DNA of 64,000 nt from Pseudomonadales bacterium (GCA_963693125.1 OY843767.1:2795549-2859548), one strand, 5' to 3'; numbered from the stretch's first letter, positions 1,171 to 21,650 are shown. The notes: generated from the sequence alone by a model not told the origin. Numbers and translations: made by a program.

Positions 1171-1192
1171 TTGGGCGAACCAGAGATCATGC

Positions 1193-2071: not shown

Positions 2072-2214
2072 ACCCTGTTACCGTTCGATTCCAGAAAATC
2101 TACCGAAATGATACGAATATTGCAAACAAGACAACCATTGCTTTTCATAATTCGCACTAAAGAATATACTAAACTACGCATAGTGATAAAATCAGATGAT
2201 ATTAAGGCCAAACA

Positions 2215-3930: not shown

Positions 3931-3942
3931 TTACGCAGGTCG

Positions 3943-4731: not shown

Positions 4732-6422
4732 TGGTTTTGCGCCGCGTGATGAGCCGCCAGATAGCCGAATGTCATCGCTGGCCCCAGGGTGGACCCGGCA
4801 CCGGGGTAGGTGCGGCCCATGACGGATGCGCTGGTGTTACCGATGGCGTATAACCCTTTAATCGGCTGATGATCAGTGTTGAGCGCAACGCCGTTTTCAT
4901 CGGTGAGGATGCCGCCTTTGGTGCCAATATCGCCGGGGAAAATTTTGATCGCGTAGAACGGGGCTTTGCTCAATGGCGCAAGGCAGGGGTTCGGTTGGTT
5001 GCGTGGGTCGCCATAGTATCTGTCGTATCCGTTCACGCCGCGATGGAAGTCCGGATCTTCACCTTTGGCGGCATATTCGTTGAATCGGTTGAACGTTGCA
5101 TCCAGGACAGCGCTTTCAACACCAATCGCCTCAGCCAGTGCGGCAATACTTTCTCCTTTTTTCAGCATATCCCTGATGCTGGGCTTTAGTGCCCTGTCCA
5201 GCATGGGTGGTCCTGGGAAAATGGGTCCGACGGGGTACTGGTCACGATACCTGGCATCAAAAACAAACCATGATGGAATGGTGGCGCATTCGTCTGAATG
5301 CCGACGCATCATTTCGCCGCCGGCAACATGGTAGGAAGCAGACTCGTTCATGTAACGTTTGCCCTGTTGATTGATGATCATACATCCCGGCAGGCTTCTT
5401 TCGGCGAACGTGGGGCGTGCCCGGTCTTCGTCGCCAAACTTGAAGCAGGGCGCCCACCAGGCTGAATCCATGAACTCAAGGGCTGCGCCAATTTTCTCAG
5501 CCTCCTGAATGGCATCGCCGGTGTTGTTGTGCTGTGAACCTGACCATTGTGTTGAACTGATTTCGCCGAGGTTCCTGCGCCGCATCTCATCGTTTTGCTC
5601 GAAGCCACCTGCGGCCAGGATGACTCCTCTGCGAGCGGTAATCGCAATGCTCTGCCCGACATAATCGACCAAAGCCCCGGTCACCTGACCATTTTCGACA
5701 GTGAGTTCACGCAGAGATACACCCAGCCGTAAAGGTACCTGTCGTTCGTTCAGGGCACGACGCAGTTGTCCCAGCAGTGAGTTACCTGCCGTCAGGCGAC
5801 GGTCCCTGGGGGTTTTGTAACGCTGTGGCAGATCGAGATAATAGCGTGTCATGATTTTGAGCATCGTCCAGATCCAGCCGGGGCGGCGAGTGATCATGGG
5901 GCGGGCTTCACTAATCGTCCAATTCACTCTGCCAAATGCCTGAGCCGCACAATGCATGGGTTGCAGTGTTAAATAGTCAGGGCCCAGTTGACCGGCGGTC
6001 ATCGGCAATGGTTCGTGAGAGCGGTGTTCCTTCGCGCCTTCCAAATCCATGTGGTAGTCGGCGTAGGTGACTGATTGAAATTTTGTGCCGCATTTGTCTT
6101 CCAGAAAGTGAAGCATCCTGCTGGCATTGTTGATATAGGCACGGAGTCTGGACTCAGGAACCTCATCACCAATCAGACCGTGGAGATAGGCAAATGCCTC
6201 ATCGTGAGAGTCCGCAGCACCGGCCTGCTCCATGTGACGAGTGCAGGGTATCCAGAGTGTGCCGCCGGACGTGGCTGACGTTCCGCCCCACAGGTGCGCT
6301 TTTTCGATGATCAGTACCTTCAAGCCGAGTTCAGCGGCCGTGTTTGCCGCTGTCAGGGCACCGGCACCGGAGCCGACGACCAGCAGATCGGTATCCCAGT
6401 CGCCATTGTTGATATTCGTCAT
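4728..6422 (-). CDS. kstD: 3-oxosteroid 1-dehydrogenase-like flavoprotein
   Basis: 564-aa ORF with DLLVVGSGAGALTAA and WGGTSATSGGTLWIP. Size and motifs are typical of KstD. Confidence 0.75.
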   Translation of the reverse strand: MTNINNGDWDTDLLVVGSGAGALTAANTAAELGLKVLIIEKAHLWGGTSATSGGTLWIPCTRHMEQAGAADSHDEAFAYLHGLIGDEVPESRLRAYINNASRMLHFLEDKCGTKFQSVTYADYHMDLEGAKEHRSHEPLPMTAGQLGPDYLTLQPMHCAAQAFGRVNWTISEARPMITRRPGWIWTMLKIMTRYYLDLPQRYKTPRDRRLTAGNSLLGQLRRALNERQVPLRLGVSLRELTVENGQVTGALVDYVGQSIAITARRGVILAAGGFEQNDEMRRRNLGEISSTQWSGSQHNNTGDAIQEAEKIGAALEFMDSAWWAPCFKFGDEDRARPTFAERSLPGCMIINQQGKRYMNESASYHVAGGEMMRRHSDECATIPSWFVFDARYRDQYPVGPIFPGPPMLDRALKPSIRDMLKKGESIAALAEAIGVESAVLDATFNRFNEYAAKGEDPDFHRGVNGYDRYYGDPRNQPNPCLAPLSKAPFYAIKIFPGDIGTKGGILTDENGVALNTDHQPIKGLYAIGNTSASVMGRTYPGAGSTLGPAMTFGYLAAHHAAQNQ

Positions 6423-6579
6423 ATTTATCCTCGATAACTGCGCTAATAGACGGAATCGGATGAAAAAGATAACACAATGCGTAAAAAAAAAGAAAATAAA
6501 TACGCAAATGGTTTACCGAAGGTGATGTTCTCATCATAATGAGATCATCCATCAGTATCAATATAGTAGAAGGACCCGC

Positions 6580-7662
6580 ATGCAATTTGAGTTCACAGAG
6601 GAACAAAAACTCATACAACAAATGTTGAATGAGTTTGCCAGTGAACATGGTACCAGCGAGCGGGTCCGCAGGGCGATGACCTCATCCCCGGGCTATGACC
6701 TGTCAACCTGGCGGGCAATGTCCGGTGAGCTGGGTTTGACGGGGCTATTGATAGACGGCGCCTGCGGTGGCCAGAATCTGGGTCTGGTTGAACTGGCTTT
6801 GATATTTGAGGCTCTGGGGCGAAGGTTGATACCATCGCCGTTGTTATCTTCAGCGGTCATCGGTGCAACGGTGATCGGTCTGTGGCCTGACGACAGGGTT
6901 AAGAAAGAATGGCTCCCAAAAGTCGCTACGGGGGAATGTCAGGTGGCAGTTGCCGCCCTGGATGGTGATGAAGCCCGGTTTGTGTTGTCCGCTGAATCCG
7001 CAGATCTGCTCTTGTTGGTCGATAGGTCACGCAATCATTCAACTCATGCGGTTGTGGCCGATGGGCCGGGACAGTTTGCCAACCTGGAGGTGTCGCGGTT
7101 GACGATGATGGATCAAACGCGGCCGATGTCACACATCAAAGTTAAAGGTGGTCTGCCCGATACCATGCTGGCGGAGGGCGATGAAGCGTCCACAGCATAC
7201 GGCACCGCAATGGATTTCGGTCGTATCGCGATTGCTGCGGAGGCGATTGGCGCTGCCCGCGAGTGTCTGGACCGAACGGTGGAATATGCAAAAGAACGTA
7301 TTCAGTTTGGGCGTCCCATTGGCAGCTTTCAGGCCGTGAAACACCAGCTTGCCGATATGATGGTTGTGATTGAGGCGGCAACATCAGCGGTGTACTTCGC
7401 GGCATGTAGTGCCAGTGAAGAGCCTGAAGGTAGAAGCCAGATGGCGGCGCTGGCAAAGGTTCAGGCGAGTGAGGCATTGTCTCATTGTGCCGCACGGATG
7501 ATTCAGTTACATGGTGGTATCGGTTTCACCTGGGAACACGATGCACATCTCTATTTCAAACGTGCGCGTGCGACAACAACACTGCTCGACAGCAACGATT
7601 CACTTGAAGAATCCATAGCGGACTCACTGGGCTTGTACCCGAAGAAGGGAGAAGCGGCATGA
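6580..7662 (+). CDS. Acyl-CoA dehydrogenase family protein (smaller partner of an overlapping ACAD pair)
   Basis: 360-aa ORF with ACAD-like N-terminal and C-terminal helical domains. 4-nt overlap with the next ACAD gene, as in steroid side-chain heteromeric FadE pairs. Confidence 0.8.
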   Translation: MQFEFTEEQKLIQQMLNEFASEHGTSERVRRAMTSSPGYDLSTWRAMSGELGLTGLLIDGACGGQNLGLVELALIFEALGRRLIPSPLLSSAVIGATVIGLWPDDRVKKEWLPKVATGECQVAVAALDGDEARFVLSAESADLLLLVDRSRNHSTHAVVADGPGQFANLEVSRLTMMDQTRPMSHIKVKGGLPDTMLAEGDEASTAYGTAMDFGRIAIAAEAIGAARECLDRTVEYAKERIQFGRPIGSFQAVKHQLADMMVVIEAATSAVYFAACSASEEPEGRSQMAALAKVQASEALSHCAARMIQLHGGIGFTWEHDAHLYFKRARATTTLLDSNDSLEESIADSLGLYPKKGEAA

Positions 7663-8846
7663 GGTTGGCGTTTACGGCGGAACAGGAAAAGTTCCGGTCT
7701 GAAGTCGCCGCCTGGCTGGACGGGCAACTGAGCGGCCCTTACCGGGATATTCGAGGCATTACCTCGCTAACAGCCGCACCGGAACGGCGGCGTGCCTGGG
7801 AGAAGACCCTGGGTGAAGCGGGCTGGAGCGCGATTGGCTGGCCTGAAAAATACGGCGGCAGAAATGCTGATTTGGCGCAGCAGGTGATTTTTGCGGAAGA
7901 ATACGCGCGGGCAGGAGCGCCCGGTCGCCTGGGACACATGGGTGTGGAGCTGGCCGGCCCAACCATTCTTGCCTTCGGCAGTGATGAACAAAAAGCGCGA
8001 TTCCTACCCGGAATTTCCGCCGGTGAAGAGATGTGGTGTCAGGGTTATTCTGAACCCGGCGCCGGCTCTGACCTTTCCAATGTACGGACCAAAGCGGCAC
8101 TTCAAGATGGTGCAAACGGAAAAGAGTGGGTCATTGAAGGTCAAAAAATCTGGACGTCACTCGCGCAGTTTGCCGAGTGGTGTTTTCTGGTCTGCAGAAC
8201 AACGCCCGGGAGCAAGGGCAGAGAGGGCCTTTCGTACCTGCTCGTTCCGATGCGTCAAGACGGCGTTGATATTCGACCGATCAGGCAAATCACCGGCGAG
8301 GCGGATTTCAACGAAGTGTTCTTCGACGGCGCGGTCACTGCGGCCGGGAACATTGTTGGAGAAGCCGGCAATGGCTGGCAGGTAGCGATGGGTACGCTGT
8401 CTTTTGAGAGGGGCGTATCAACACTGGCCCAACAGATGCAGTTTCGAAATGAACTGAATGCGATCATCAGGGCGGCAAATGAAAATGGCAGTTCGGCTGA
8501 TCCGGTCATTCGACGTCGCATTGCAAAATCCTGGCGTGGTTTACAGGCCATGCGGGCGAGTGCGCTCAGAATGTTGTCCGGAGCAGATTCCGGTCAGCTA
8601 AGCGGCCCTCAGTTTACTTACAAAATCTACTGGGCAAGCTGGCATCGCGAGTTGGGAGAACTTGCCATGGATGTGCTTGGGCAGGCGGGTGAGGTCGCCT
8701 CTGACGATTACCTGCCGGGGGACCTGCCTCGCATGTTCCTCTTTTCGCGTGCGGATACCATATACGCGGGCACTAACCAGATTCAGCGCAACGTGATTGC
8801 GGAGCGCGCACTGGGTCTGCCAAAGGAACCGCGAGGCGCACAATAA
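7659..8846 (+). CDS. Acyl-CoA dehydrogenase family protein (larger partner of the pair)
   Basis: 395-aa ORF with WCQGYSEPGAGSDL and IYAGTNQIQRNVIAE, both typical ACAD motifs. Confidence 0.85.
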   Translation: MRLAFTAEQEKFRSEVAAWLDGQLSGPYRDIRGITSLTAAPERRRAWEKTLGEAGWSAIGWPEKYGGRNADLAQQVIFAEEYARAGAPGRLGHMGVELAGPTILAFGSDEQKARFLPGISAGEEMWCQGYSEPGAGSDLSNVRTKAALQDGANGKEWVIEGQKIWTSLAQFAEWCFLVCRTTPGSKGREGLSYLLVPMRQDGVDIRPIRQITGEADFNEVFFDGAVTAAGNIVGEAGNGWQVAMGTLSFERGVSTLAQQMQFRNELNAIIRAANENGSSADPVIRRRIAKSWRGLQAMRASALRMLSGADSGQLSGPQFTYKIYWASWHRELGELAMDVLGQAGEVASDDYLPGDLPRMFLFSRADTIYAGTNQIQRNVIAERALGLPKEPRGAQ

Positions 8847-8883
8847 TTTAGTGCCCACACGGGCAGATACGACAGGAGGATGA

Positions 8884-9621
8884 ATGAGTAGCTTACAGGG
8901 AAAAACCGTTCTGGTAACCGGCGCCGCCTCGGGCATTGGTGCGGCGGTTGTCGAGGAGTTAGTCAATGCGGGTGCTACCGTGCTTGCGGCAGACCGGGAG
9001 GAGGCGGACGAGTTGCCCCGGCCTCATCGCAGATTAATCGTTGATGTCAGCAATGAAGCGTCGGTTGAAAGTGCTTTTGAAGGTGTGACGACCCTGGATG
9101 GGTTGGTCAATGCCGCCGGTATAACAGAACAGGGTCCGATTCAAACCGTGGACATGGCGCAGTGGCAAAAAGTCATTGGCGTTAACCTGACTGGAACGAT
9201 GCTGATGGCCAGACATGCCACCAACTTGATGTTGCAAAACAAGCTGGCCGGTTCGATTGTCAACATTTCAAGCGCCTATGGTCTGACAGGTGGTCCCGGC
9301 AATGTTGCCTACAATGTATCGAAGTCGGGGGTCGCGCAGTTAACACGTTGCATGGCCGCTGACCTTGGGAGAAACAACATCCGGGTCAATGCGGTGTGCC
9401 CGGGTTACATAGAAACACCGATGACCGATATGCTGAAACATGCGGGCGCATTCAGGGATCAATTTGTCGCCATGCATCTTCTGCAGCGACCCGGATTGCC
9501 CGGGGAAGTCGCCAAAGCGATTTGTTTTCTGCTTTCAGATGACGCGTCGTATATATCCGGTGTCAACCTTCCCGTCGATGGTGGTTTCACCGCCGCCCAC
9601 ATGCCGCCGGTAAATCTATAA
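8884..9621 (+). CDS. SDR family oxidoreductase
   Basis: 245-aa ORF with TGAASGIGAA and YNVSKSG. A GGAGGA Shine-Dalgarno lies upstream. Confidence 0.85.
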   Translation: MSSLQGKTVLVTGAASGIGAAVVEELVNAGATVLAADREEADELPRPHRRLIVDVSNEASVESAFEGVTTLDGLVNAAGITEQGPIQTVDMAQWQKVIGVNLTGTMLMARHATNLMLQNKLAGSIVNISSAYGLTGGPGNVAYNVSKSGVAQLTRCMAADLGRNNIRVNAVCPGYIETPMTDMLKHAGAFRDQFVAMHLLQRPGLPGEVAKAICFLLSDDASYISGVNLPVDGGFTAAHMPPVNL

Positions 9622-9667
9622 TGTGTATAAAGATGGCCTGGCGTAAGAGATTGTGCTTTTTATCGCC

Positions 9668-10261
9668 CTATTCAAACGGACGATAATGTGGATGGTCTGC
9701 AATCGCCAGCATTTGTTTATCGCCACTACTATCACCGTATGCATGTATCACCTCATAATCATCAAGGGACAAACAGGCCTTGATGCGATCCACCTTTTCC
9801 TGGCCATGACAATTGGCGCCTTCAAATCGTCCGGTCAATATGCCACCTTGTTGTGCCATACGGGTACTTAACAATTCAAGCCCTTCTGCCTGGCAAAAGC
9901 CCTTGAGCCAGGTGTCAATTGATGCGGAGACCAAAATTACCCGATGACCCTGTGTCTTGTGCCAGCGCAGCTTTTCTATTGCTTTGGGCCTGATGATCCT
10001 GACGATCCGCGCTTTGGTATATTGTTCACCGAGTCGCTCAATTTTTTCAACCGTCCAGCCTTTGAAATAAAATCCAAGTAATTTTTCTTTGGCGACGTTG
10101 TTTTTCATCAGTTTCAATAGAAAAGCAGCCAGTATCGGACTCATAACCAACAAGCCCAGGTAATAACGTGGTTTGCCCACGGCATATTGAATAAAATCCA
10201 ATAACGAGTCTTTGGTCGTTATGGTGCCGTCAAAGTCGAACAGTGCCAGTTCTTTTTTCAC
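9668..10261 (-). CDS. HAD-IB family phosphatase (last gene of the island operon)
   Basis: 197-aa ORF with GTG start. HAD motif I FDFDGTIT and C-terminal GDSSGD. Confidence 0.8.
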   Translation of the reverse strand: MKKELALFDFDGTITTKDSLLDFIQYAVGKPRYYLGLLVMSPILAAFLLKLMKNNVAKEKLLGFYFKGWTVEKIERLGEQYTKARIVRIIRPKAIEKLRWHKTQGHRVILVSASIDTWLKGFCQAEGLELLSTRMAQQGGILTGRFEGANCHGQEKVDRIKACLSLDDYEVIHAYGDSSGDKQMLAIADHPHYRPFE

Positions 10262-10295
10262 CGGAAATAATTCCCTGTCAGTACCCTTCGGTTCA

Positions 10296-11957
10296 CTAAT
10301 TGGAGTTGATCATCTGGTAATAAGACAGACGGTTTTTCGGTTCAAAACTATCTTTAAGCAGTTGTGCCATTGACGACGATATCCCCAATGACTTCTTAAA
10401 AGCGTATATGTGACGATGAGTCCCATCTTCTTTATAATCGACTAAATAAATATCATAGTCATCATACTGGCTTTGTAAGAATTCAATGCTTACGGTAGCC
10501 GCTAAAGAAACCTTTGAAAGCCCAGATCGCTGAGCGTCAGTGGGTGGACTTTTTAGTTTGAAATGTTGCTTATTGTTGTCAGTCACAGGGAGCACCTTTT
10601 CACCGGATACCACCAACGGTGCAGGGTCAATTTGGCGATTGTGATGAAACAGTATGACATCTGGTGACAGTTGTTTCATGTATTGCACATCAATAATGTT
10701 TTTGGCCGGGTACACCGAATTAAGCCCCACCAGATCAACCAAAACATGCCCCCCCCCCCCCCCGATATTGATTCCATTCCAGTATGAAAAGCGCCCTGCT
10801 TCTGTTACTGCTATGGTCAAATCCTTCGGCAGCTTATCGTGCATGGTGTAAGAGGCCCGATTGAAATAGCTAAAAGTCGTCACTTTCATCGACTTGTTGA
10901 CATGATACCCGGCAATGACAACAAAGCCGACTAAATAGACCACCAGCCCCTTCGATAACAGGGCACCAGCTTTCTGTTCTTTGAATCTGGCCAGCAAAAG
11001 CTGTACCAGGACAAAATAGGCCACGATAAATATCGGTGCCTGAAATCTGTAACCGATATTTTGCGATTGATGGACCATCGTCAATGCCACAAATAGCAAT
11101 ATCAGCGGAGACATCAGAACCAGATAGTGCGTTATTTTTTTCGACATGAGTAACAATAAGGCACAGGGTAAGAAGGTATAAAGGTTGGAAACGCCCCATC
11201 TCAGGTTGGTTCTCACGCTCTCGGTTAAATCGGTATGGCCTTTAACATACAAGGGTAACGGCAACAAATTACCAAAGTAATGATAGCGCCAGACGAAATA
11301 AACAACCCCGATAACAAACGCAACTGACATGCCGAGCAGGTAGGTTTTGAATTGCCTGCGCTTATAGACCCTGACCAGACCTGTCAAGGTAAATGCCACG
11401 CCCATGATCACCCCATCGGGCCTGAATAGTGCAATGATAATGGCCAGGTAAGGCACTTTGCTCAGGTGTTCTTCCCGGCTGGTGGCGACAAACGTCAGCA
11501 ATACCAACGCCATATACAAATAGACACTAAAACCGCTCACGGCAGCACGCAGTGGTAATTGCACTGCCCACAATACAACAAACAGACTCATCAAACCGAT
11601 GGTTTTTTTATCCGTCAGTTGTGTACGCATAATTTCATGGGATATCACAGTGGTGATGATGCCCACGCCAACGGAGTTGAGTAAAATCGCCGAGGTGCCG
11701 ACATCCAATCCACTGAGCCCGACTCCAGCCAGCAATAGCAGCCATAAAAAATCTGTTGCCCCTTCTGCACGAGGACCACCAGGATAATAACTAATACCAT
11801 TACCACTGAGTATATTGTCTACATAAATAAACAATATGTAGGCATCTTCATGAAAGTGCCCGTTAGAGATCAGCCACAGGTTATATATAAAAAATACCGA
11901 GGCGCCAACGACACCAATCAACCACAACTTTGCTGGCGAATGCTCAACTGGATTCAT
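10296..11957 (-). CDS. Polytopic membrane protein, GT-C-like candidate arabinofuranosyltransferase, tandem paralog 1 (carries G15 tract)
   Basis: 553-aa ORF. About 10 hydrophobic spans fill residues 10-350, with an acidic HEDAY motif right after TM1. A ~200-aa C-terminal soluble domain follows. Sits directly downstream of the DPA-type donor genes. Confidence 0.65.
   Translation of the reverse strand: MNPVEHSPAKLWLIGVVGASVFFIYNLWLISNGHFHEDAYILFIYVDNILSGNGISYYPGGPRAEGATDFLWLLLLAGVGLSGLDVGTSAILLNSVGVGIITTVISHEIMRTQLTDKKTIGLMSLFVVLWAVQLPLRAAVSGFSVYLYMALVLLTFVATSREEHLSKVPYLAIIIALFRPDGVIMGVAFTLTGLVRVYKRRQFKTYLLGMSVAFVIGVVYFVWRYHYFGNLLPLPLYVKGHTDLTESVRTNLRWGVSNLYTFLPCALLLLMSKKITHYLVLMSPLILLFVALTMVHQSQNIGYRFQAPIFIVAYFVLVQLLLARFKEQKAGALLSKGLVVYLVGFVVIAGYHVNKSMKVTTFSYFNRASYTMHDKLPKDLTIAVTEAGRFSYWNGINIGGGGGHVLVDLVGLNSVYPAKNIIDVQYMKQLSPDVILFHHNRQIDPAPLVVSGEKVLPVTDNNKQHFKLKSPPTDAQRSGLSKVSLAATVSIEFLQSQYDDYDIYLVDYKEDGTHRHIYAFKKSLGISSSMAQLLKDSFEPKNRLSYYQMINSN
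10749..10763 (-). repeat. Homopolymeric G15 (C15 on plus strand) inside paralog 1, encoding GGGGG
   Basis: Counted directly: cc at 10749-50, ten c at 10751-60 and ccc at 10761-63. Paralogs 2 and 3 have only ggggg at the equivalent site. Confidence 0.9.
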
Positions 11958-11978
11958 AGATTCATGCCCTTCGGTTCA

Positions 11979-13625
11979 CTAATTGGAACTGATCATTTGG
12001 TAATAAGACAGATGGTTTTTCGGTTCAAAACTATCTTTAAGCAGTTGTGCCATTGACGACGATATCCCCAGCGACTTCTTAAAAGCGTATATGTGAGAAC
12101 GAAGCTCATCTTCAGGACGATAGATTAAATAAATATCATAGTCATCATACTGGCTTTGTAAGAATTCAATGCTTACAGTAGCCGCTAAAGAAACCTTTGA
12201 AAGCCCAGGTCGCTGAGCGTCAGTGGGTGGACTTTTTGGTTTGAAATGTTGCTTATTGTTGTCAGTCAGAGGGAGCACCTTTTCACCGGATACCACCAAC
12301 GGTGCAGGGTCAATTTGGCGAGCGTGATGAAACAGTATGACATCTGGTGACAGTTGTTTCATGTATTGCACATCAATAATGTTTTTGGCCGGGTACACCG
12401 AATTAAGCCCCACCAAATCAACCAAAACATGGCCCCCGGATTGATTCCAGTATGAAAAGCGTCCTGCTTTTGTTACTGCTATGGTCAAATCCTTCGGCAG
12501 CTTATCGTGCATGGTGTAAGGTACCAGATCCCTATGGTTAGAAGTCGTCATTTCCATCGACTTGTTGACATGATACCCGGCAATGACAACAAAGCCGACT
12601 AAATAGACCATCAGCCCCTTCGATAACAGGGCACCAGCTTTCTGTTCTTTGAATCTGGCCAGCAAAAGCTGTACCAGGACAAAATAGGCCACGATAAATA
12701 TCGGTGCCTGAAATCTGTAACCGATATTTTGCGATTGATGGACCATCGTCAATGCCACAAATAGCAATATCAGCGGAGACATCAGAACCAGATAGTGCGT
12801 TATTTTTTTCGACATGAGTAACAATAAGGCACAAGGCAAGAAGGTATAAAGGTTGGAAACACCCCATCTCAGGTTGGCTTTCACGCTCTCGGTTAAATCG
12901 GTATGGCCTTTAACATACAAGGGTAACGGCAACAAATTACCAAAGTAATTATAGCGCCAGACGAAATAAACAATCCCGATAACAAACGCAATTAACATGC
13001 CGAGCAGGTAGGTTTTGAATTGCCTGCGCTTATAGACCCTGACCAGACCTATCAGGGTAAATGCCACGCCCATGATCACCCCATCGGGCCTGAATAGCGC
13101 AATGATAATGGCCAGATAAGGCACTTTGCTCAGGTGTTCTTCCCGGCTGGTGGCGACAAACGTCAGCAATACCAACGCCATATACAAATAGACACTAAAA
13201 CCGCTCACGGCAGCACGCAGTGGTAATTGCACCGCCCACAATACAACAAACAGACTCATCAAACCGATGGTTTTTTTATCCGTCAACTGTGCACGCATAA
13301 TTTCATGGGATATAACAGTGGTGATGATGCCCACGCCAACGGAGTTGAGTAAAATCGCCGAGGTGCCGACATCCAATCCACTGAGCCCGACTCCAGCCAG
13401 CAATAGCAGCCATAAAAAATCTGTTGCCCCTTCTGCACGAGGACCACCAGGATAATAACTAATGCCATTACCACTGAGTATATTGTCTACATAAATAAAC
13501 AATATGTAGGCATCTTCATGAAAGTGCCCGTTAGAGATCAGCCACAGGTTATATATAAAAAATACCGAGGCGCCAACGACACCAATCAACCACAACTTTG
13601 CCGGCGACTGCTCAACTGGATTCAT
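11979..13625 (-). CDS. Polytopic GT-C-like membrane protein, tandem paralog 2
   Basis: 548-aa ORF. By eye it has only ~10 differences from paralog 1 in the first ~350 residues. Confidence 0.65.
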   Translation of the reverse strand: MNPVEQSPAKLWLIGVVGASVFFIYNLWLISNGHFHEDAYILFIYVDNILSGNGISYYPGGPRAEGATDFLWLLLLAGVGLSGLDVGTSAILLNSVGVGIITTVISHEIMRAQLTDKKTIGLMSLFVVLWAVQLPLRAAVSGFSVYLYMALVLLTFVATSREEHLSKVPYLAIIIALFRPDGVIMGVAFTLIGLVRVYKRRQFKTYLLGMLIAFVIGIVYFVWRYNYFGNLLPLPLYVKGHTDLTESVKANLRWGVSNLYTFLPCALLLLMSKKITHYLVLMSPLILLFVALTMVHQSQNIGYRFQAPIFIVAYFVLVQLLLARFKEQKAGALLSKGLMVYLVGFVVIAGYHVNKSMEMTTSNHRDLVPYTMHDKLPKDLTIAVTKAGRFSYWNQSGGHVLVDLVGLNSVYPAKNIIDVQYMKQLSPDVILFHHARQIDPAPLVVSGEKVLPLTDNNKQHFKPKSPPTDAQRPGLSKVSLAATVSIEFLQSQYDDYDIYLIYRPEDELRSHIYAFKKSLGISSSMAQLLKDSFEPKNHLSYYQMISSN

Positions 13626-13685
13626 AGATTCATGCCCTTAAACTTCCATTGCAGTATGGTTCATCTATCAATGCCTTTCAGTTCA

Positions 13686-15332
13686 CTAATTGGAACTGAT
13701 CATTTGGTAATAAGGCAGACGGTTTTTCGGTTCAAAACTATCTTTAATCAATTGTGCCATTGACGACGATATCCCCAGTGATTTCTTAAAAGCGTATATG
13801 TAAGAAAAAAACTCATTTCCAGAATGATAGACTAAGTAAATATCATAGTCATCATACCGGCTTTGCAAGAATTCAATGCTTACAGTAGCCGCTAAAGAAG
13901 CCTTTGAAAGCCCAGGTCGCTGAGCGTCAGTGGGTGGCCTTTTTAGTTTGAAATGCTGCATATTGTTGTCAGTCAGAGGGAGCACCTTTTCACCGGGTAC
14001 CACCAAAGGTGTAGGGTCAATATGGTAATATTGATGAACCATCATGACATCTGGTGACAGTTGTTTCATGTATTGCATATCAATAGTGTTTTTGGCCGGA
14101 TACACAGAATTAAGCCCCACCAAATCAACCAAAACATGGCCCCCGGATTGATTCCAGTATGAAAAGTGCCCGGCTTCTGTTACTGCTATGGTCAAATCCT
14201 TTGGCAGCTTATCGTGCATGGTGTAAGGGGCTTTATTGCCATGGTGAAAAGTCACCGCATACATCGACTTGTTGACATGATACCCGGCAATGACAACAAA
14301 GCCGACTAAATAGACCACCAGCCCCTTCGATAACACGGCACCAGCTTTCTGTTCTTTGAATCTGGCCAACAAAAGCTGTACCAGGACAAAATAGGCCACG
14401 ATGAATATCGGTGCTTGAAATCTGTAACCGATATTTTGCGATTGATGGACCATCGTCAATGCCACAAATAGCAATATCAGCGGAGACATCAAAACCAGAT
14501 AGTGCGTTATTTTTTTCGACATAAGTAACAATAAGGCACAGGGTAAGAAGGCATAAAGGTTGAAAACGCCCCATCTCAGATTGGTTTTCACGCTCTCGAT
14601 TAAATCGGTATGGCCTTTAACATACAGGGGTAACGGCAACAAATTACCAAAGTAATGATAGCGCCAGACGAAATAAACAACCCCGATAACAAACACAATT
14701 AACATACCGAGTACGTAGGTTTTGAATTGCCTGCGCTTATAGACCCTGACCAGACCTATCAGGGTAAATGCCACGCCCATGATCACCCCATCGGGCCTGA
14801 ATAGCGCAATGATAATGGCCAGATAAGGCACTTTGCTCAGGTGTTCTTCCCGGCTGGTGGCGACAAACGTCAGCAATACCAACGCCATATATAAATAGAC
14901 ACTATGGCCGCCCACGGCAGCAACCAGTGGTGATTGCACCGCCCACAATACAACAAACAGACTCATCAAACCGATGGTTTTCTTATCCGTCAGTTGTGCA
15001 CGCATAATTTCATGGGATATCACAGTGGTGATGATGCCCACGCCAACGGAGTTGAGTAAAATCGCCGAGGTGCCGACATCCAATCCACTGAGCCCGACTC
15101 CAGCCAGCAATAGCAGCCACAGAAAATCTGTTGCCCCTTCCGCATGAGGACCACCGGGATAATAACTAATACCATTACCACTGAGTATATTGTCTACATA
15201 AATAAACAATATGTAGGCATCTTCATGAAAGTGCCCGTTAGAGATCAGCCACAGGTTATATATAAAAAATACCGAGGCGCCAACGACACCAATCAACCAC
15301 AACTTTGCGGGTGACTGCTCAACTGGAGTCAT
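13686..15332 (-). CDS. Polytopic GT-C-like membrane protein, tandem paralog 3
   Basis: 548-aa ORF. Its start overlaps the dprE2-like stop by 4 nt (ATGA). Confidence 0.65.
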   Translation of the reverse strand: MTPVEQSPAKLWLIGVVGASVFFIYNLWLISNGHFHEDAYILFIYVDNILSGNGISYYPGGPHAEGATDFLWLLLLAGVGLSGLDVGTSAILLNSVGVGIITTVISHEIMRAQLTDKKTIGLMSLFVVLWAVQSPLVAAVGGHSVYLYMALVLLTFVATSREEHLSKVPYLAIIIALFRPDGVIMGVAFTLIGLVRVYKRRQFKTYVLGMLIVFVIGVVYFVWRYHYFGNLLPLPLYVKGHTDLIESVKTNLRWGVFNLYAFLPCALLLLMSKKITHYLVLMSPLILLFVALTMVHQSQNIGYRFQAPIFIVAYFVLVQLLLARFKEQKAGAVLSKGLVVYLVGFVVIAGYHVNKSMYAVTFHHGNKAPYTMHDKLPKDLTIAVTEAGHFSYWNQSGGHVLVDLVGLNSVYPAKNTIDMQYMKQLSPDVMMVHQYYHIDPTPLVVPGEKVLPLTDNNMQHFKLKRPPTDAQRPGLSKASLAATVSIEFLQSRYDDYDIYLVYHSGNEFFSYIYAFKKSLGISSSMAQLIKDSFEPKNRLPYYQMISSN

Positions 15333-16060
15333 ATACTCATGCCCTTAAACTTCCATTCAGGAATGGATTTTATGATCAGCATGATGTACTTCCAAATCCA
15401 GCGACAATACAACTCATTACGATTGCCCTGTTGGGCTGTAAAAATCGCCTTTGCAACTTCTTCCGGCTCTGCTGTAAGTTTTTCCGGCAGGCCCATACCT
15501 TTGGTCATCCTGGTGTTAACAAAGCCAGGTTTAACAGTCAAAACACGCACCTTGTGATCATGCAGACGGTTGCGTAGACCGGATAAATAGGTGGTCAGGG
15601 CAGCCTTGGCAGAACCATATAGATAATTGGCCTTACGTCCGCGATCGCCTGCCACCGAACTGATACCAACGATGAACCCTGAACGGCGTGCCGCAAAATC
15701 ATCTGCGATGATATTAAGCATACTGACCACCGAAGTGTAATTGGTGTCTAGAATTGTTCTTGCTTCAACAAAATCGCTTTGCGCTTTTTCCTGGTCGCCC
15801 AGATAACCCACAGCACTTATCACACCCAGGGGCTTTTCCTCCAGGCTATCGTAAAATGCCTGATGGTTGTCAAAATCCAGCATATCCAACTCCGCACACC
15901 TGACCTTGCGACCAAAACGCACAGAAATATCCTGCGCCAATGGCTCAAGGCTACCCGCTTGTCGAGCCGCCAGATACAGGTCGTAACCATTCTCGGCATA
16001 TTGCCGCGCCAGGGCCCTGGCGATATCACTTTTGGCGCCAATTATTAATATGTAACCCAT
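15329..16060 (-). CDS. dprE2: DprE2-like SDR (polyprenylphospho-2-keto-pentofuranose reductase)
   Basis: 243-aa ORF. ISSVAGDRGRKANYLYGSAKAAL, VRVLTVKPGFVNTRM and the C-terminal IPEWKFK tail resemble M. tuberculosis Rv3791 as I recall it. Confidence 0.7.
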   Translation of the reverse strand: MGYILIIGAKSDIARALARQYAENGYDLYLAARQAGSLEPLAQDISVRFGRKVRCAELDMLDFDNHQAFYDSLEEKPLGVISAVGYLGDQEKAQSDFVEARTILDTNYTSVVSMLNIIADDFAARRSGFIVGISSVAGDRGRKANYLYGSAKAALTTYLSGLRNRLHDHKVRVLTVKPGFVNTRMTKGMGLPEKLTAEPEEVAKAIFTAQQGNRNELYCRWIWKYIMLIIKSIPEWKFKGMSI

Positions 16061-16061
16061 G

Positions 16062-17360
16062 TTATAGCTCTAGTCGTTTCGATTGCATGGAATGAAAAGT
16101 TTTGTTCATTTGGTATTTGCATCGCAGGGCCCGGAATTTATCGACGTCTGGATAACCCTGCTCAAAAACCTGCCTGGATACCCGGGCATCCTTGGCCAGA
16201 TATATTCGACCGCCATGAGCCAACACAATTTCGTCAAGTTTATCAAGCAGGGTAAAAAGACCCGGCTCTATTTTGAAATCGAGTGCCAATGAATACCCTT
16301 CCAGTGGGAAAGACAGGTAATTTTCATTCGCAGGACCGTACAACTTGAGCACGGCTAAAAAAGAGCCCTTGCCTGAGTCAGCAATCGTTTTTAGAATTAC
16401 CGACAAGCCTTCAAAACTGGCTTCTTTGGGTAGAATAAATTGATACTGGGTAAAACCATTTTTTCCGTAAATCCGATTCCAATGACCCACAGCATCGAGC
16501 GGAAAGAAGAAACTGTCGATAGACACCTTTTGCTCACTTACCGCCGCTTTGACTTTGCCGTAATATAGCCAGTTAAACGACTTCACCGACAGGGTATTGA
16601 GAGCAAAACCCGGAAGACTAAAAGGCACCGCTGGTTTGCTACTACTTTTATAGTCAAGTTTGCCCTTGGGCAAAAAATCGCCCACCCTCAGCAGGCAGCG
16701 ACCAATATCCGCGCCTTTGGCCAGACAATCAATCCAGGCGACTGAATAAGGGCTGTCAGCGTACTGCTCAAAAGCCTCGAACGTCTCACGTAAATTGGCT
16801 GTTTTAATGGTCGTTTGCCCTATCGTTTTAGCGCCAATTCGTTTGAGTCTGATACGTGCATCAAGCACAATACCTGTCAATCCCATCCCACCACAGGTAG
16901 CATGAAACAAGTCACTGTGCTCGGTGGCAGAGCAGGTCACGATATCACCATTGGGTAACATCAAGCGAAAATCCACCAGGAATTGACTAAAACAACCTGC
17001 CTGATGATGATTTTTGCCATGAACGTCACTGGCAATAGCACCACCGACGGTGATAAGTTTTGTGCCAGGTACCACCTGGAGAAACCAACCTTTGGGCACT
17101 ATAGAACGGATGATATCCGCCAGTAAGACACCGGATTGAACATGCAACACACCCAATTGGTCATCAAAGTGCAAAAACAGATCTCTCGGTCGCATTTGCA
17201 CCATGGCCCTGCTCAGCGCACTGTCGCCATAACTTCGTCCATTACCATAGGCAATTAACGCATTGTGCTCACGTAACATGGTACGCAATTGATCTAAATC
17301 ATCGAATTTCAATGCCTGACCATCACAGGTCGGATAATTGCCCCAACTACGTAAGTTCAT
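16062..17360 (-). CDS. dprE1: DprE1-like FAD-dependent polyprenylphosphoribose 2'-oxidase
   Basis: 432-aa ORF. GNGRSYGDSAL, PGTKLITVGGAIASDVHGKNHH, FTQYQFILP, and C-terminal GGRIYLAKDARV...SKRLEL parallel Rv3790 as I recall it. Confidence 0.75.
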   Translation of the reverse strand: MNLRSWGNYPTCDGQALKFDDLDQLRTMLREHNALIAYGNGRSYGDSALSRAMVQMRPRDLFLHFDDQLGVLHVQSGVLLADIIRSIVPKGWFLQVVPGTKLITVGGAIASDVHGKNHHQAGCFSQFLVDFRLMLPNGDIVTCSATEHSDLFHATCGGMGLTGIVLDARIRLKRIGAKTIGQTTIKTANLRETFEAFEQYADSPYSVAWIDCLAKGADIGRCLLRVGDFLPKGKLDYKSSSKPAVPFSLPGFALNTLSVKSFNWLYYGKVKAAVSEQKVSIDSFFFPLDAVGHWNRIYGKNGFTQYQFILPKEASFEGLSVILKTIADSGKGSFLAVLKLYGPANENYLSFPLEGYSLALDFKIEPGLFTLLDKLDEIVLAHGGRIYLAKDARVSRQVFEQGYPDVDKFRALRCKYQMNKTFHSMQSKRLEL

Positions 17361-17755
17361 GCAGCCTGCTCCGTGAAGACATATTTTCTATCGAGAAAAT
17401 ATTTCATCACATAACCGACAGATAGCCCGATCGCAGCCCCGACATATTTGGCCGCTTCATGATCAAAGTACCAGTCAAACCAAATTTCGGTGCCCCAAAA
17501 AATGAAAGTCGTGAAACCACCCGTCAAAGTATAAGAAACAAACTTCCTGGCGTCCTGAGTTTTAGACGTTGGTTTATGATGGAAAATAAACTTTTTGTCG
17601 AGCACATATTTACATACAAGTCCGGCACCTGTACCATTACACATGGCCAAAACCAGGCCCCCGGTGCCGTCATAAACCCACAGGCTGAGGTACTGGAACA
17701 ACAAATTAAGTAAAATAGAGACAATCGCAAACAGGGTATATTTAAAGGCTATCAT
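17357..17755 (-). CDS. GtrA family membrane protein (Rv3789-like)
   Basis: 132-aa ORF with four hydrophobic spans. Overlaps both neighbours by 4 nt. Confidence 0.7.
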   Translation of the reverse strand: MIAFKYTLFAIVSILLNLLFQYLSLWVYDGTGGLVLAMCNGTGAGLVCKYVLDKKFIFHHKPTSKTQDARKFVSYTLTGGFTTFIFWGTEIWFDWYFDHEAAKYVGAAIGLSVGYVMKYFLDRKYVFTEQAA

Positions 17756-18693
17756 TGGTAAATGATCCAGCCAAAAGAAGCCACCCAGCCAACAATGGTG
17801 AGTTGCAAAAATGTATCTTTGAGTACTATGCGGGTCGGCGAACCACTGTCTTTTTCAACAAAGGCGATTTGTAGGTAGCGCAAGATACCCAACATCACAA
17901 AAAATGCTGTGAGGTAAAGATATTCACTATGCCATTTGGCAGTGACATCGCCAGACGTGGTGTATTGAATATACGAAACAATCACCACTGTTGCTGTGAT
18001 CATCATCGCCACATCGATAAATTGCAAATTATAACCATCGATAACCGTGCGCATTTTTTTGCCGGTATCGAGAAAAATAAGGGTATCGTCACGGCGCTTG
18101 GCCAATGCCATGAAAAGGGCCAGCAGAAAAGTTATGATCACTATCCACATCGACAAATGAATACCGGTAACAACAGAGCCGACAAATAACCGCAATACAA
18201 ATCCGATAGCAATAATGTACACATCGATTATGGCAATGTGTTTTAAATGAAAACTGTAAGCGATGTTCATCACCACATAAGCCAGTAAAATGGCACCGGC
18301 CTGCAATGAGGCTGAAGCGATAAGTCCCCCCCCAACAATAAACAACGAGGTCATTAATATCAGCGCTACCTTACTTGTGACAGCGCCACTGGCCAAAGGT
18401 CGAAAGCGCTTTTCAGGATGCTGACGGTCATCTTCGATATCGCAATAATCGTTAACAATATAAATACCACTGGCACATATACAAAACGCAGCAAATGCCA
18501 AAAAGGACTGCCCAAGAAGCGCCATATTTTGAATATTGCCGGAAAAAAACAAAGGCAGAAAAATAAACAGGTTTTTAATGTATTGATGCGGACGCATCAG
18601 TTTAATGATGTGCTTCATGAATGATGATTCTTGCCTGAATGAGCTTTTGAAACTACTGGCTTTTGCTTGTTTGCCAGGGAGCCGTAACTTCAT
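17752..18693 (-). CDS. UbiA-family polyprenyl-phosphate 5-phosphoribosyltransferase (Rv3806c-like); start uncertain (18693, 18618 or TTG 18726)
   Basis: NDYCDIEDDRQHPEKRFRPLASG is the DPPR-synthase-type first Asp-rich motif. MRPHQYIKNLFIF forms the N-terminal helix. The protein is polytopic. The ATG at 18693 has TAAGG 8 nt upstream. Confidence 0.75.
   Translation of the reverse strand: MKLRLPGKQAKASSFKSSFRQESSFMKHIIKLMRPHQYIKNLFIFLPLFFSGNIQNMALLGQSFLAFAAFCICASGIYIVNDYCDIEDDRQHPEKRFRPLASGAVTSKVALILMTSLFIVGGGLIASASLQAGAILLAYVVMNIAYSFHLKHIAIIDVYIIAIGFVLRLFVGSVVTGIHLSMWIVIITFLLALFMALAKRRDDTLIFLDTGKKMRTVIDGYNLQFIDVAMMITATVVIVSYIQYTTSGDVTAKWHSEYLYLTAFFVMLGILRYLQIAFVEKDSGSPTRIVLKDTFLQLTIVGWVASFGWIIYQ
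18326..18333 (-). repeat. G8 homopolymer inside the ubiA-like gene (codons VGGG)
   Basis: Plus strand reads taagt-cccccccc-aacaata. It translates as IVGGGLI on the minus strand. Confidence 0.9.
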
Positions 18694-18807
18694 AGAAACC
18701 TTATAGATAAACGGCTTCAAATTCAAGCAAAATGGGCATGACGATGCACCGATGGCGGACGAACTGTTTCCCTCCGCAGGTTACCAGTATGTGCTCTATG
18801 GTATGGG

Positions 18808-19947: not shown

Positions 19948-21583
19948 TAGAGATTCCTTCTTCGAATTGCGATTTGATCTCGCGTTTGAGTAGCTTGCCC
20001 GTTGCATTTTTTGGCAGCTCAGCGGTCTGCACATAAAGTGCTTTGGGCACCTTGTATCCGGCGAGGCCGTCGGCGCAATGGGTTAGCAGGTCTTCAGCGC
20101 CGGTTGTTGCGGAATCATTGACTACCGCCACGGCGACTAGCTGCTCGCCCAATCGCTCGTCCGGTATGCCAAAGGCGGCACATTCGGTTACATCCGGATG
20201 GATGCCCAATACGCGCTCGACTTCAGCGCAGTAGATGTTCTCGCCGCCCGAAATCACCATATCGGTGAGCCGGTCAACAATGTACAGGTTTGCGTTCTCA
20301 TCGAAGTATCCCGCATCGCCGGTTGCAAACCAGCCGTTCTCGTCAATCACCTGCGCATCATGATTCGCATAGCCGGCCATTAACGATGCTCCCCGGACAA
20401 ATATTTCACCGACTTCACCTGCTGCAAGGGTCGCGCCGGTTGCATCACGAATTTCCCCATCAAAGGTTGCGATCATCCTGCCGACGCTGCCCGGATTGGC
20501 GATAAAATCCTCGCCTATGATCAGAGTGACTGTGCCGTTTGCTTCCGTCATGCCATATCCCGACCCGAGCACGGCGCCGGGGAATTCGGTTTGAATCGCC
20601 TTCAGCAGCGATGGGGGTGTTGCCTGTCCGCCGACAGACAGAGAAGTAATGCTGGATAGATCAAAGGATGATCGTTGCTCGTTGTGCAGGATGTCCCAGT
20701 GCATTGTCGGAACGCCGGGGAAAGACGTAACCTTTTCCTGCTCGATCAATCGCAGTGCCTCGGTGGCGTCCCATCGTGGCAACAGGACAAGTTTGCCGCC
20801 CTGCATCATCCCGGACAGGAACACTGCATGACAGCCACTTACGTGAAAGAGCGGAAAGACGAGCAGGGTTACGGGAGGCGGTCGCATGCTGATGAGTGTT
20901 TCGTAGTCGATGTTATATCGCCGTGCCATCTGATCGGCGATCAGGGCGCCGGAATACCGGATGGTCTTTAGAGATGTCAGCACCCCCTGGTTGGTCAGGA
21001 TTGCCGCTTTGGGTCTGCCGGTTGTCCCGCTTGTGAACATCAGTAGCGCTTCGTCATCACCCGCCCGTGTGACGTCAGGCAGTGTCGAATCCGGCTTGCG
21101 GATTGCCAGGCTGCGTGCCTGCTGACTTGAAATGGACTGCGTATCTGCTGATTGGTCGCCCAGCAACAAGAGGCACCGGGTGGATGCTATACAGTACCGA
21201 AGCTCATCATCTGAAGCGCGAGCATTAACGAGAACCGGCACGGCACCCAGAGAAACCAGGGCAGTGAATGAAAGAACCCATTCGATAGAGTTGGGGTAGG
21301 CCAGGGCCACCCGACTGCCTGGCCTGACCTGATACCCGTCGCCCAGACTGTCGGCCAGTGACGCGGCCATTGTCTGAAATTGCCCGTAGGTGATTCGCTC
21401 ACCATCGGCGACCACGAAATCGTTGGCGCCAAACTCGTCAAGGTAGCGAAAAATCTGATTCAGGCAGTCGAAGTTTTCTTCAAAATCCCGATATGACCTG
21501 CCACGGATGACCCTTTCAACCAGTTTATATTCTGTTTCAATCGCCTCGTTCAACGTTTCACCAATATTTCGTGCAATATGCAT
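19940..21583 (-). CDS. AMP-dependent acyl-CoA synthetase (steroid side-chain ligase-like)
   Basis: 547-aa ORF with MFTSGTTGRPKA (AMP-binding P-loop), GYGMTE, GWFATGD and PKNATGKLLK. Confidence 0.85.
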   Translation of the reverse strand: MHIARNIGETLNEAIETEYKLVERVIRGRSYRDFEENFDCLNQIFRYLDEFGANDFVVADGERITYGQFQTMAASLADSLGDGYQVRPGSRVALAYPNSIEWVLSFTALVSLGAVPVLVNARASDDELRYCIASTRCLLLLGDQSADTQSISSQQARSLAIRKPDSTLPDVTRAGDDEALLMFTSGTTGRPKAAILTNQGVLTSLKTIRYSGALIADQMARRYNIDYETLISMRPPPVTLLVFPLFHVSGCHAVFLSGMMQGGKLVLLPRWDATEALRLIEQEKVTSFPGVPTMHWDILHNEQRSSFDLSSITSLSVGGQATPPSLLKAIQTEFPGAVLGSGYGMTEANGTVTLIIGEDFIANPGSVGRMIATFDGEIRDATGATLAAGEVGEIFVRGASLMAGYANHDAQVIDENGWFATGDAGYFDENANLYIVDRLTDMVISGGENIYCAEVERVLGIHPDVTECAAFGIPDERLGEQLVAVAVVNDSATTGAEDLLTHCADGLAGYKVPKALYVQTAELPKNATGKLLKREIKSQFEEGISNE

Positions 21584-21650
21584 TTTTTTATTTGAAAACT
21601 ATCTATATGCGTCGTTAGACTACTATTTTGTTGCGAATGTGAAAAGTCGA

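Follow-up and report, generated by a model that had tools for sequence, protein, structure and literature searches.

We begin with a 64,000-nucleotide stretch of DNA from a Pseudomonadales bacterium (GCA_963693125.1, OY843767.1:2795549-2859548), referred to here as the window, and with an eight-gene operon on its minus strand (9668-18726) that contains three tandem genes for membrane proteins with the GT-C glycosyltransferase fold. The first gene (17752-18726; Pfam UbiA, 1.4e-23) encodes a UbiA-family polyprenyl-phosphate phosphoribosyltransferase resembling decaprenylphosphoryl-5-phosphoribose (DPPR) synthase. It scores 223.9 bits against the NCBIfam model of decaprenyl-phosphate phosphoribosyltransferase (NF008978, cut-off 207), and its relatives are annotated from an internal ATG that gives 288 amino acids. 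It is followed by a small membrane protein of the GtrA family (17357-17755; Pfam GtrA_DPMS_TM, 3.5e-10; NCBIfam NF037976, 157 bits with a cut-off of 50), a candidate flippase for a lipid-linked pentose. The next two genes would provide the halves of a 2'-epimerase that turns ribose into arabinose: a DprE1-like flavin adenine dinucleotide (FAD) oxidase (16062-17360), which matches NCBIfam NF053785 over its full length (E 2.9e-115) with 386 bits, under the equivalog cut-off of 500, and a DprE2-like short-chain dehydrogenase/reductase (SDR; 15329-16060), which matches NF053786 over its full length (E 7.8e-49) with 166.6 bits, under the cut-off of 250. The three GT-C genes come next, and the operon closes with an HAD-IB phosphatase (9668-10261; Pfam HAD, 3e-35; TIGR01490, 141 bits with a cut-off of 98). 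This last protein is a candidate for the phosphatase that acts on the 5-phosphate of polyprenyl-phosphate-ribose-5-phosphate, and it is found together with UbiA and DprE homologues in other phyla. The whole operon forms an island of low GC content (window ~9600-18800), 0.44-0.46 as compared to about 0.55 around it. The host is an uncultured gammaproteobacterium, and one of its housekeeping peptidases has its best named relative, 81% identical, in a metagenome-assembled genome labelled "Pseudomonadales bacterium".

In the order of transcription, the array consists of c3 (13686-15332, 548 amino acids), c2 (11979-13625, 548 amino acids) and c1 (10296-11957, 553 amino acids), all on the minus strand. 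The original prediction, which was made from the DNA alone, had placed three consecutive open reading frames of 553, 548 and 548 amino acids at 10284-15366, a span that encloses them. The reading frames stand as described, with the corrections that they are on the minus strand and that its "copy 1" comes last in the array. The array had also been placed immediately downstream of the donor-synthesis genes, and the stop codon of DprE2 in fact overlaps the start codon of c3 (ATGA). The spacers after c3, c2 and c1 are 60, 21 and 34 nucleotides (nt) long. The one between c3 and c2 (13626-13685) repeats the final ~40 nt of the DprE2 gene, as seen in the alignment of the junction, and thus marks the boundary of the duplicated unit. 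The one between c2 and c1 (11958-11978), in an alignment of four junctions, looks like a fusion at a AAGGGCATGA microhomology. Spacers of 35 nt are also present in related contigs, and the differing junctions (60, 21 and 35 nt) imply several independent duplication or recombination events. There is no convincing terminator between the genes, those of the array included, the promoter and terminator scan giving nothing above the shuffled expectation, and the Rfam and tRNA scans of the 64-kb window are empty.

The three copies are very similar. As a protein, c1 shares 93% identity with c2 and 89% with c3, and the pairwise DNA identity among the three is 93.1-95.9%. About 10 differences had been counted between c1 and c2 over the first ~350 residues, and codons 1-350 contain exactly 10 that differ non-synonymously. 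The array is not an artefact of assembly, because the copies are distinct (they differ at 4-7% of bases) and the locus recurs on seven further contigs with 2, 3 or 4 distinct copies.

The three proteins have no match in Pfam, in NCBIfam or in a phmmer search of PDB sequences, where hits to DUF4131 and DUF2004 at E>0.03 are taken as noise. The AlphaFold2 model of c2, built on an alignment of 88 sequences, has a predicted local distance difference test score (pLDDT) of 94.9 and a predicted template-modelling score (pTM) of 0.94. It contains 11 transmembrane (TM) helices; the first periplasmic loop bears two short helices of its own, and residues ~361-548 fold into an alpha/beta domain. About 10 TM spans had been expected, which is one too few, followed by a soluble C-terminal domain, which is there. 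In gene c2 the TM or catalytic module corresponds to 12558-13625 and the periplasmic domain to 11982-12557 on the minus strand. The Lys/Arg-rich loops of the model alternate sides in a positive-inside pattern, which suggests a topology with the N-terminus inside and the C-terminus outside. When the model is compared with the PDB using Foldseek, all 11 matches at E<=0.001 are GT-C proteins, with TM-scores of 0.40-0.53 normalised to the query: ALG12 (1.2e-6), AftB (1.4e-6, two entries), PglB, AftA, DPY19, STT3 and ArnT, with EmbA, EmbB and EmbC ranking just under this group. The GT-C fold that had been proposed from the DNA is therefore the one obtained, and there is no transporter or Wzy-type fold among these matches. 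A polymerase or ligase of the Wzy/WaaL type and a transporter are both ruled out by the fold.

Among these structural relatives, the arabinofuranosyltransferase AftB is also the closest in sequence. In an hmmsearch of the family profile against PDB sequences it is the sole glycosyltransferase (E 0.39), and hhalign against AftB residues 40-272 gives a probability of 82% and an E value of 1e-5. In both alignments E37-D38 fall on AftB D61-D62, and R179, the arginine of an LFRPDG motif (13080-13097 in c2), falls on AftB R221. The cryo-EM study of M. chubuense AftB (PMC12041299) proposes D62 as the catalytic nucleophile and describes R221 as stabilising the phosphate of the donor. The acidic pair E37-D38 lies within the NGHFHEDAY motif (13506-13532 in c2), which occupies residues 32-40 of all three copies and, as had been noticed, comes just after TM1 (helix 8-31); the positive-inside pattern puts the pair on the periplasmic side. 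All 88 homologues of the alignment carry E37, D38 and R179 without exception, and the same holds for E65, D69, R224, K239, Q299, N300 and R304. By analogy to AftB, the catalytic carboxylate is likely that of D38, and R179 is probably the residue that binds the phosphate of the donor.

The C-terminal domain is less familiar. Modelled alone it has an alpha/beta fold with a pLDDT of 92, and a Foldseek search of the PDB with this domain gives no credible match (best E 0.08, TM<0.35); at this sensitivity it is not recognisable as a carbohydrate-binding module (CBM), a tetratricopeptide repeat (TPR) domain or an AftB-type cap. A likeness to periplasmic binding proteins that appeared in the profile search (4ls3, E 0.29) is unsupported by the fold search.

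Proteins of this kind form a large family. A word-indexed search gives 232 homologues, all of them labelled "hypothetical", and a search of the family profile against 1.84 billion representatives, clustered at 50% identity, gives 10581 clusters at E<=1e-10, of which at least 1331 reach E<=1e-30. Members are found in Gamma-, Alpha- and Betaproteobacteria, Bacteroidota (Apibacter), Myxococcota, Planctomycetota, Verrucomicrobiota and Acidobacteriota. A tblastn search finds none in phage records and only three distant matches in plasmids, and so gives no evidence that phages or plasmids carry this GT-C family. As a side observation, a sequence from human faeces labelled "Bacteriophage sp." (MT837543.1, unverified; L081 901-2382) has a UbiA-type gene (48% identity) adjacent to an HAD phosphatase gene (37%); there is no GT-C of this family on this 6.6-kb scaffold.

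We turn to the variation of the array in the population. The comparison set consists of the window and seven contigs of one ENA metagenome assembly (ERZ22155170), on which the locus is found in the same genomic context, with flanks 98-99% identical to those of the window and with the island inserted at an identical site in all eight. The genes fall into four types, A to D, which are assigned from the 3' third. Read from 5' to 3', the window has A-B-C (c3 being type A, c2 type B and c1 type C). This order is seen again on contig L085; the others have A-A-A-B (L001), A-B-B (L082), A-B (L084) and A-B-D (L083, L089 and L090). The array is thus dynamic in one species-level population, with 2-4 copies and varying content.

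How the types differ along the gene is seen when its two parts are compared separately. Beyond nt 1068, copies of different type are 10.5% apart in DNA and copies of one type 3.5% (ratio 3.04, a value reached by 0 of 5000 label permutations). For the 5' part, which encodes TM1-TM11, the corresponding distances are 3.7% and 3.3% (ratio 1.11). A sliding window shows that the type signal begins at ~nt 1050, which is the end of TM11. The neighbour-joining tree of the TM part does not follow the types: B and C of the window are sisters, and one B copy of L082 groups with the A copies. A run test in the style of GENECONV finds significant tracts common to different types, all within nt 10-1012, where significance means p<=0.03 and the p values are pairwise and uncorrected (0 to 0.03). 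Synonymous divergence in the TM part is 0.077-0.094 between types and 0.066-0.085 between strains within a type, and since these values are similar, purifying selection alone cannot explain the similarity of the TM parts. Either the catalytic part has been homogenised by recombination or the C-terminal parts have been imported, and both lead to the same mosaic of a constant and a variable part. Recent duplication or ongoing gene conversion had been suggested from the high identity, and this suggestion agrees with the lack of a type signal in the 5' two-thirds, with the shared tracts and with the types kept in the 3' third. Concerted evolution of the whole gene is ruled out, as the 3' thirds cluster by type across strains.

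The catalytic modules are ~97-99% identical in protein, and the differences between types are concentrated in three hot loops of the periplasmic domain, at residues 357-369, 434-441 and 502-511 in c2 numbering. They correspond to 14226-14264, 14010-14033 and 13800-13829 in c3, to 12519-12557, 12303-12326 and 12093-12122 in c2, and to 10851-10889, 10620-10643 and 10410-10439 in c1. The ratio of non-synonymous to synonymous differences per site (pN/pS) in these loops is 3.2-4.6 between the window copies (Fisher p 0.013-0.03), a value inflated by the choice of the loops; the TM part has 0.23-0.29, and outside the loops the periplasmic domain has 0.3-0.4. With no choice of sites, the ratio of the corresponding rates (dN/dS) is 0.65-0.86 for the whole C-terminal domain and 0.29-0.34 for the TM domain. 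Between types the loops differ at 35-44% of non-synonymous sites. Within type A, across eight strains, pN is 0.011 as compared to a pS of 0.08, and this near-invariance means that the hot loops are constrained within a type and not merely unconstrained. From where selection acts, we infer that the loops of the periplasmic domain set the acceptor.

The last copy of the window array carries one more feature. A poly-G tract in c1 (10749-10763, minus strand; G15 on the coding strand and C15 on the plus strand), identified by Tandem Repeats Finder and by alignment, encodes G399-G403. It is in frame and lies inside an insertion of 15 nt that is absent from c2 and c3, both of which carry G5 at this place. 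The tract is the sole homopolymer of at least 10 nt in the 64-kb window. In other strains the third copy has G5 (type C, L085), which is in frame, or G8, G14 and G24 (type D, on L083, L089 and L090 respectively), which are out of frame. The lengths at this one codon in third-position copies are therefore 5, 8, 14, 15 and 24, and length alone decides the frame. Downstream of the tract, each of the three OFF alleles keeps an undamaged run of 150 codons in a different frame, ending at the usual stop, and shows no other lesion. Across 102 family-gene matches of the compared loci no homopolymer tract is found, which makes the G-tract particular to this population. The tract has the anatomy of a slipped-strand contingency locus, which makes the third copy a candidate switch for phase variation.

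Are these length differences real, and do they belong to a living gene? The alternative is that they are errors of assembly or sequencing, or scars of a dying gene, and of all the alternatives that we consider this one survives best. Homopolymer length is the weakest point of long-read assemblies, and exact lengths in metagenome assemblies are error-prone. The type-D alleles are OFF in three of three cases with no ON allele seen, which fits a recently dead gene as well, and the restriction of the tract to this population may be counted on the same side. All of these points weigh against a phase switch. However, G8, G14, G15 and G24 in place of G5 range far past the usual miscall of one nucleotide up or down, frame is all that separates the three OFF alleles from an intact gene over 150 codons, and the window has no second homopolymer of such length. 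Error or decay is, on balance, a doubtful explanation of the tract, though one with real weight.

Combining the gene content with the fold and with the pattern of variation, we consider it probable that the operon (9668-18726, minus strand) arrived by horizontal transfer and is a self-contained system for D-arabinofuranosylation outside the cytoplasm, in which the GT-C copies share a donor and differ in acceptor. Judging from the family assignments, the donor would be made and flipped as in the D-Araf pathways of mycobacteria and Pseudomonas and in the three-component pentofuranose systems of Kelly et al. (PMC11127046): the UbiA enzyme would convert phosphoribosyl pyrophosphate (PRPP) to polyprenyl-phosphate-ribose-5-phosphate, the HAD phosphatase would strip the 5-phosphate, DprE1 and DprE2 would epimerise C2 to give polyprenyl-phosphate-arabinofuranose, and GtrA would help the donor reach the periplasmic face. 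The three GT-C enzymes, each composed of an 11-TM module distantly related to AftB and a ~190-residue periplasmic domain specific to the family, would then transfer arabinofuranose (Araf) to a periplasmic acceptor, with lipopolysaccharide (LPS), capsule or a glycoprotein as candidates. The copies are most likely polyprenyl-phosphate-arabinofuranose transferases. The types would use the same donor and the same chemistry, each with its own acceptor site or acceptor molecule. Both the content of the array and the G-tract vary, and which transferases are active may thereby differ from cell to cell and from strain to strain; the array would then be a generator of surface-glycan diversity with a phase-variable third copy. 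A bolder form of this proposal combines a constant catalytic module, which recombination keeps interchangeable, with variable periplasmic acceptor-recognition modules of at least four types, a reshuffling of the array through gain or loss of copies, and a poly-G switch for the third copy, which together would give strain-specific arabinosylation, plausibly as an escape from phages or grazers, and it would make these proteins the founding members of a large, unannotated GT-C family related to AftB. We offer it tentatively, as an idea that is on the whole somewhat less probable than its opposite.

Several points weigh against this proposal, in addition to those given for the G-tract. The similarity to AftB lies below conventional significance in hmmsearch. 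About three quarters of the family loci have no DprE or UbiA homologue within 10 kb, and in three that were inspected the gene stands alone. There are no acceptor-synthesis genes within 10 kb on either side of the operon, and the locus is not in or beside a glycan gene cluster. All the comparison contigs come from a single metagenome assembly, and the hot loops were picked after the differences between the copies had been seen.

The copies might instead act sequentially like the Emb and Aft enzymes, making different linkages (e.g., priming, extension and capping) and building an oligo-arabinan. Type A followed by type B in eight of eight arrays, with an optional third position, fits a core pair with a variable cap. 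Mycobacteria provide a precedent in their multiple GT-C arabinosyltransferases (PMC12041299), and the pilins of P. aeruginosa bear alpha-1,5-Araf oligomers (bioRxiv 10.1101/2020.04.19.049825). New linkage chemistry would more likely need changes in the active site, however, and here the catalytic modules are nearly identical and exchange tracts between types; the mycobacterial paralogs, by comparison, are clearly different families with different positions of the catalytic Asp. We therefore regard sequential action as unlikely. The original prediction had left open whether the paralogs add successive or alternative linkages or act on different acceptors, and of these "different acceptors" fits better than "different linkages", because the catalytic module is near-identical in all copies and the divergence is in the loops of the periplasmic domain.

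The choice of donor is considered next. The GT-C enzymes could use a donor other than arabinose (polyprenyl-phosphate-ribofuranose or another lipid-linked sugar), or they could transfer a preassembled glycan in the manner of an oligosaccharyltransferase. The scarcity of DprE genes beside family members elsewhere speaks for this, as do the presence of PglB and STT3 among the structural matches and the finding of Kelly et al. (PMC11127046) that the GT-C of such a system takes either ribofuranose (Ribf) or xylofuranose (Xylf) donors. On the other side, the GT-C genes of the window sit between those of the epimerase and the phosphatase, with translational coupling to DprE2, and the nearest protein in sequence transfers arabinofuranose. 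For the window a different donor is quite improbable.

In other genomes the link to the donor genes is seen in part of the family. DprE1, DprE2 and/or UbiA homologues lie within 10 kb in ~20 of the 79 genome loci with a family member, which include Apibacter, Vibrio, Enterovibrio, Advenella, Vreelandella, Arenicella, Litoricola, Pelagibacteraceae and Aquabacterium and represent at least four phyla or classes. Since DprE and UbiA are missing near most members, the GT-C family as a whole may use other donors; the assignment of an arabinose donor is strong for the window locus and less certain for the family. In Apibacter adventoris wkB301 (L003 8332-11533) a tandem pair of family genes, 58.5% identical, lies between DprE2 and an HAD phosphatase. 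The pair arose by a separate, older duplication in this Bacteroidota of the bee gut, so the gene has been duplicated beside donor genes more than once.

The weakest alternative, that the copies are redundant products of a neutral or dosage-driven amplification that is now decaying, can claim the high identity, the variable copy number (three type-A copies on L001, two type-B copies on L082) and the frameshifted third copies of three strains, yet it is most improbable, as redundancy would not keep types so sharply defined by loops that hardly vary within a type and differ strongly between types, and the frameshifted copies carry no further lesion.

Among characterised systems, one of the closest is mycobacterial AftB (GT89; structures 9dlf and 9dlh), a retaining enzyme that transfers Araf from decaprenyl-phosphate-Araf in beta-(1->2) linkage. 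Common to both are the GT-C(A) fold with 11 TM helices, the alpha/beta architecture of the C-terminal periplasmic domain, an aligned pair of acidic residues in the first periplasmic loop (ED here, DD in AftB), the arginine that corresponds to R221, and the likely donor, polyprenyl-phosphate-Araf made through DprE1 and DprE2 (PMC12041299). They differ in that identity over the N-terminal module is ~22%, which is not significant by hmmsearch, and in that the proteins described here have a periplasmic domain with no PDB match, a Gram-negative host and a tandem, diversified array. The relation of the window GT-Cs to GT89 is remote.

A second comparison is with the three-component systems that add pentofuranose side chains, such as ORF15-ORF14-ORF12 of Citrobacter youngae O1/O2, with a transferase of GT136 (Kelly et al. 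2024, PMC11127046). These combine a UbiA-type polyprenyl-phosphate-ribose synthase, an HAD phosphatase, a flippase and a periplasmic GT-C, together with DprE1 and DprE2 when the sugar is Araf, and all of these parts are present together in the window operon; in both cases the GT-C genes are annotated as hypothetical proteins. In the window, however, the phosphatase is separate and not fused to the synthase, the transporter is of the GtrA type, as in P. aeruginosa and M. tuberculosis, and not of the MATE or SMR type, and the locus lies outside any O-antigen cluster. Compared by reported signature only, the window GT-Cs do not resemble GT136 (ORF12), as there is no EpsG Pfam match at E<=0.1 and no beta-rich C-terminal CBM. 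Kelly et al. mention "more elaborate systems" with several GT-Cs (PMC11127046); the type structure, the recombination pattern and the poly-G tract found here are not described there.

The arabinosylation of group IV pilins in P. aeruginosa (PsPA7_6245-6249 and TfpW; bioRxiv 10.1101/2020.04.19.049825) is alike in its synthase, phosphatase, GtrA-like protein, DprE1 and DprE2, and in a GT-C of 11 TM helices whose loop 1 carries an acidic motif. TfpW differs in having 646 amino acids and a C-terminal TPR domain and in lying beside pilA, and the window has three paralogs; there is no Pfam TPR match in the window GT-Cs and no pilin gene in the neighbourhood, and the window proteins are not of the TfpW kind. 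The gtrABC loci of Salmonella and Shigella are likewise acquired islands in which conserved donor and flippase genes accompany a variable GT-C that sets the specificity, and their phase-variable expression drives serotype diversity (PMC3688519, PMC2909390). The donor there is undecaprenyl-phosphate-glucose made by GtrB (GT2), each operon has one GtrC, and the phase variation is epigenetic (Dam/OxyR at the promoter) and not due to a homopolymer in a coding region.

Homopolymers of the latter kind are familiar from the poly-G/C contingency loci of Neisseria, Haemophilus, Campylobacter and Helicobacter, where a tract inside a glycosyltransferase gene sets the reading frame. To our knowledge those transferases are cytoplasmic Leloir enzymes of host-associated pathogens, whereas the tract described here lies in the gene of a GT-C protein in an uncultured, probably environmental gammaproteobacterium. 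A full-text literature search found no paper that joins phase variation, a homopolymer and a GT-C, and we have found no description elsewhere of a constant catalytic module combined with periplasmic modules that vary and with a homopolymer in the coding region.

For a large family that neither Pfam nor NCBIfam models, the analysis names a fold, residues that are candidates for catalysis, and a likely donor. It would extend AftB-like arabinofuranosyl transfer, which is drug-target chemistry in mycobacteria, to Gram-negative bacteria, and the compact genes should be tractable. Near-isogenic enzymes that differ almost only in three loops amount to a natural experiment on how GT-C proteins choose their acceptor, with a possible use in glycoengineering. 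The array also points to strain-level glycan microdiversity within one metagenome (in copy number, in type and possibly through a phase switch) of a kind that is usually invisible in short-read assemblies. If the array does generate diversity, co-existing strains of an uncultured marine-type gammaproteobacterium would show different patterns of arabinosylation.

Two family members elsewhere have neighbours of some interest. In a Ketobacter sp. (L087 8806-10086) the gene is directly upstream of a Wzy_C gene, of the O-antigen ligase/polymerase-like kind, and beside a Tn3 transposase, and the Wzy_C neighbour hints at an LPS or polysaccharide acceptor in that organism. In Aliiroseovarius marinus (L088 9432-9884) it is immediately downstream of the gene for RpiB (ribose-5-phosphate isomerase B), an adjacency that may be due to chance or may reflect a link to pentose supply.

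The surroundings of the operon are catabolic. Within 10 kb on either side lie genes for acyl-CoA dehydrogenases, SDRs, a KshA-like Rieske oxygenase, AMP-ligases and KstD-like flavoproteins, and over the wider flanks (window 1-9600 and 18800-40000) there is a dense set of KshA-like Rieske oxygenase, KstD-like FAD_binding_2, acyl-CoA dehydrogenase, thiolase, AMP-ligase and SDR genes, which resembles a cluster for the degradation of steroids or alicyclic compounds. On contig L084 the Rieske oxygenase gene is truncated (3680-4507), with 275 amino acids as compared to 379, and on contig L085 a DDE transposase gene (20987-21650) is located ~9 kb downstream of the array.

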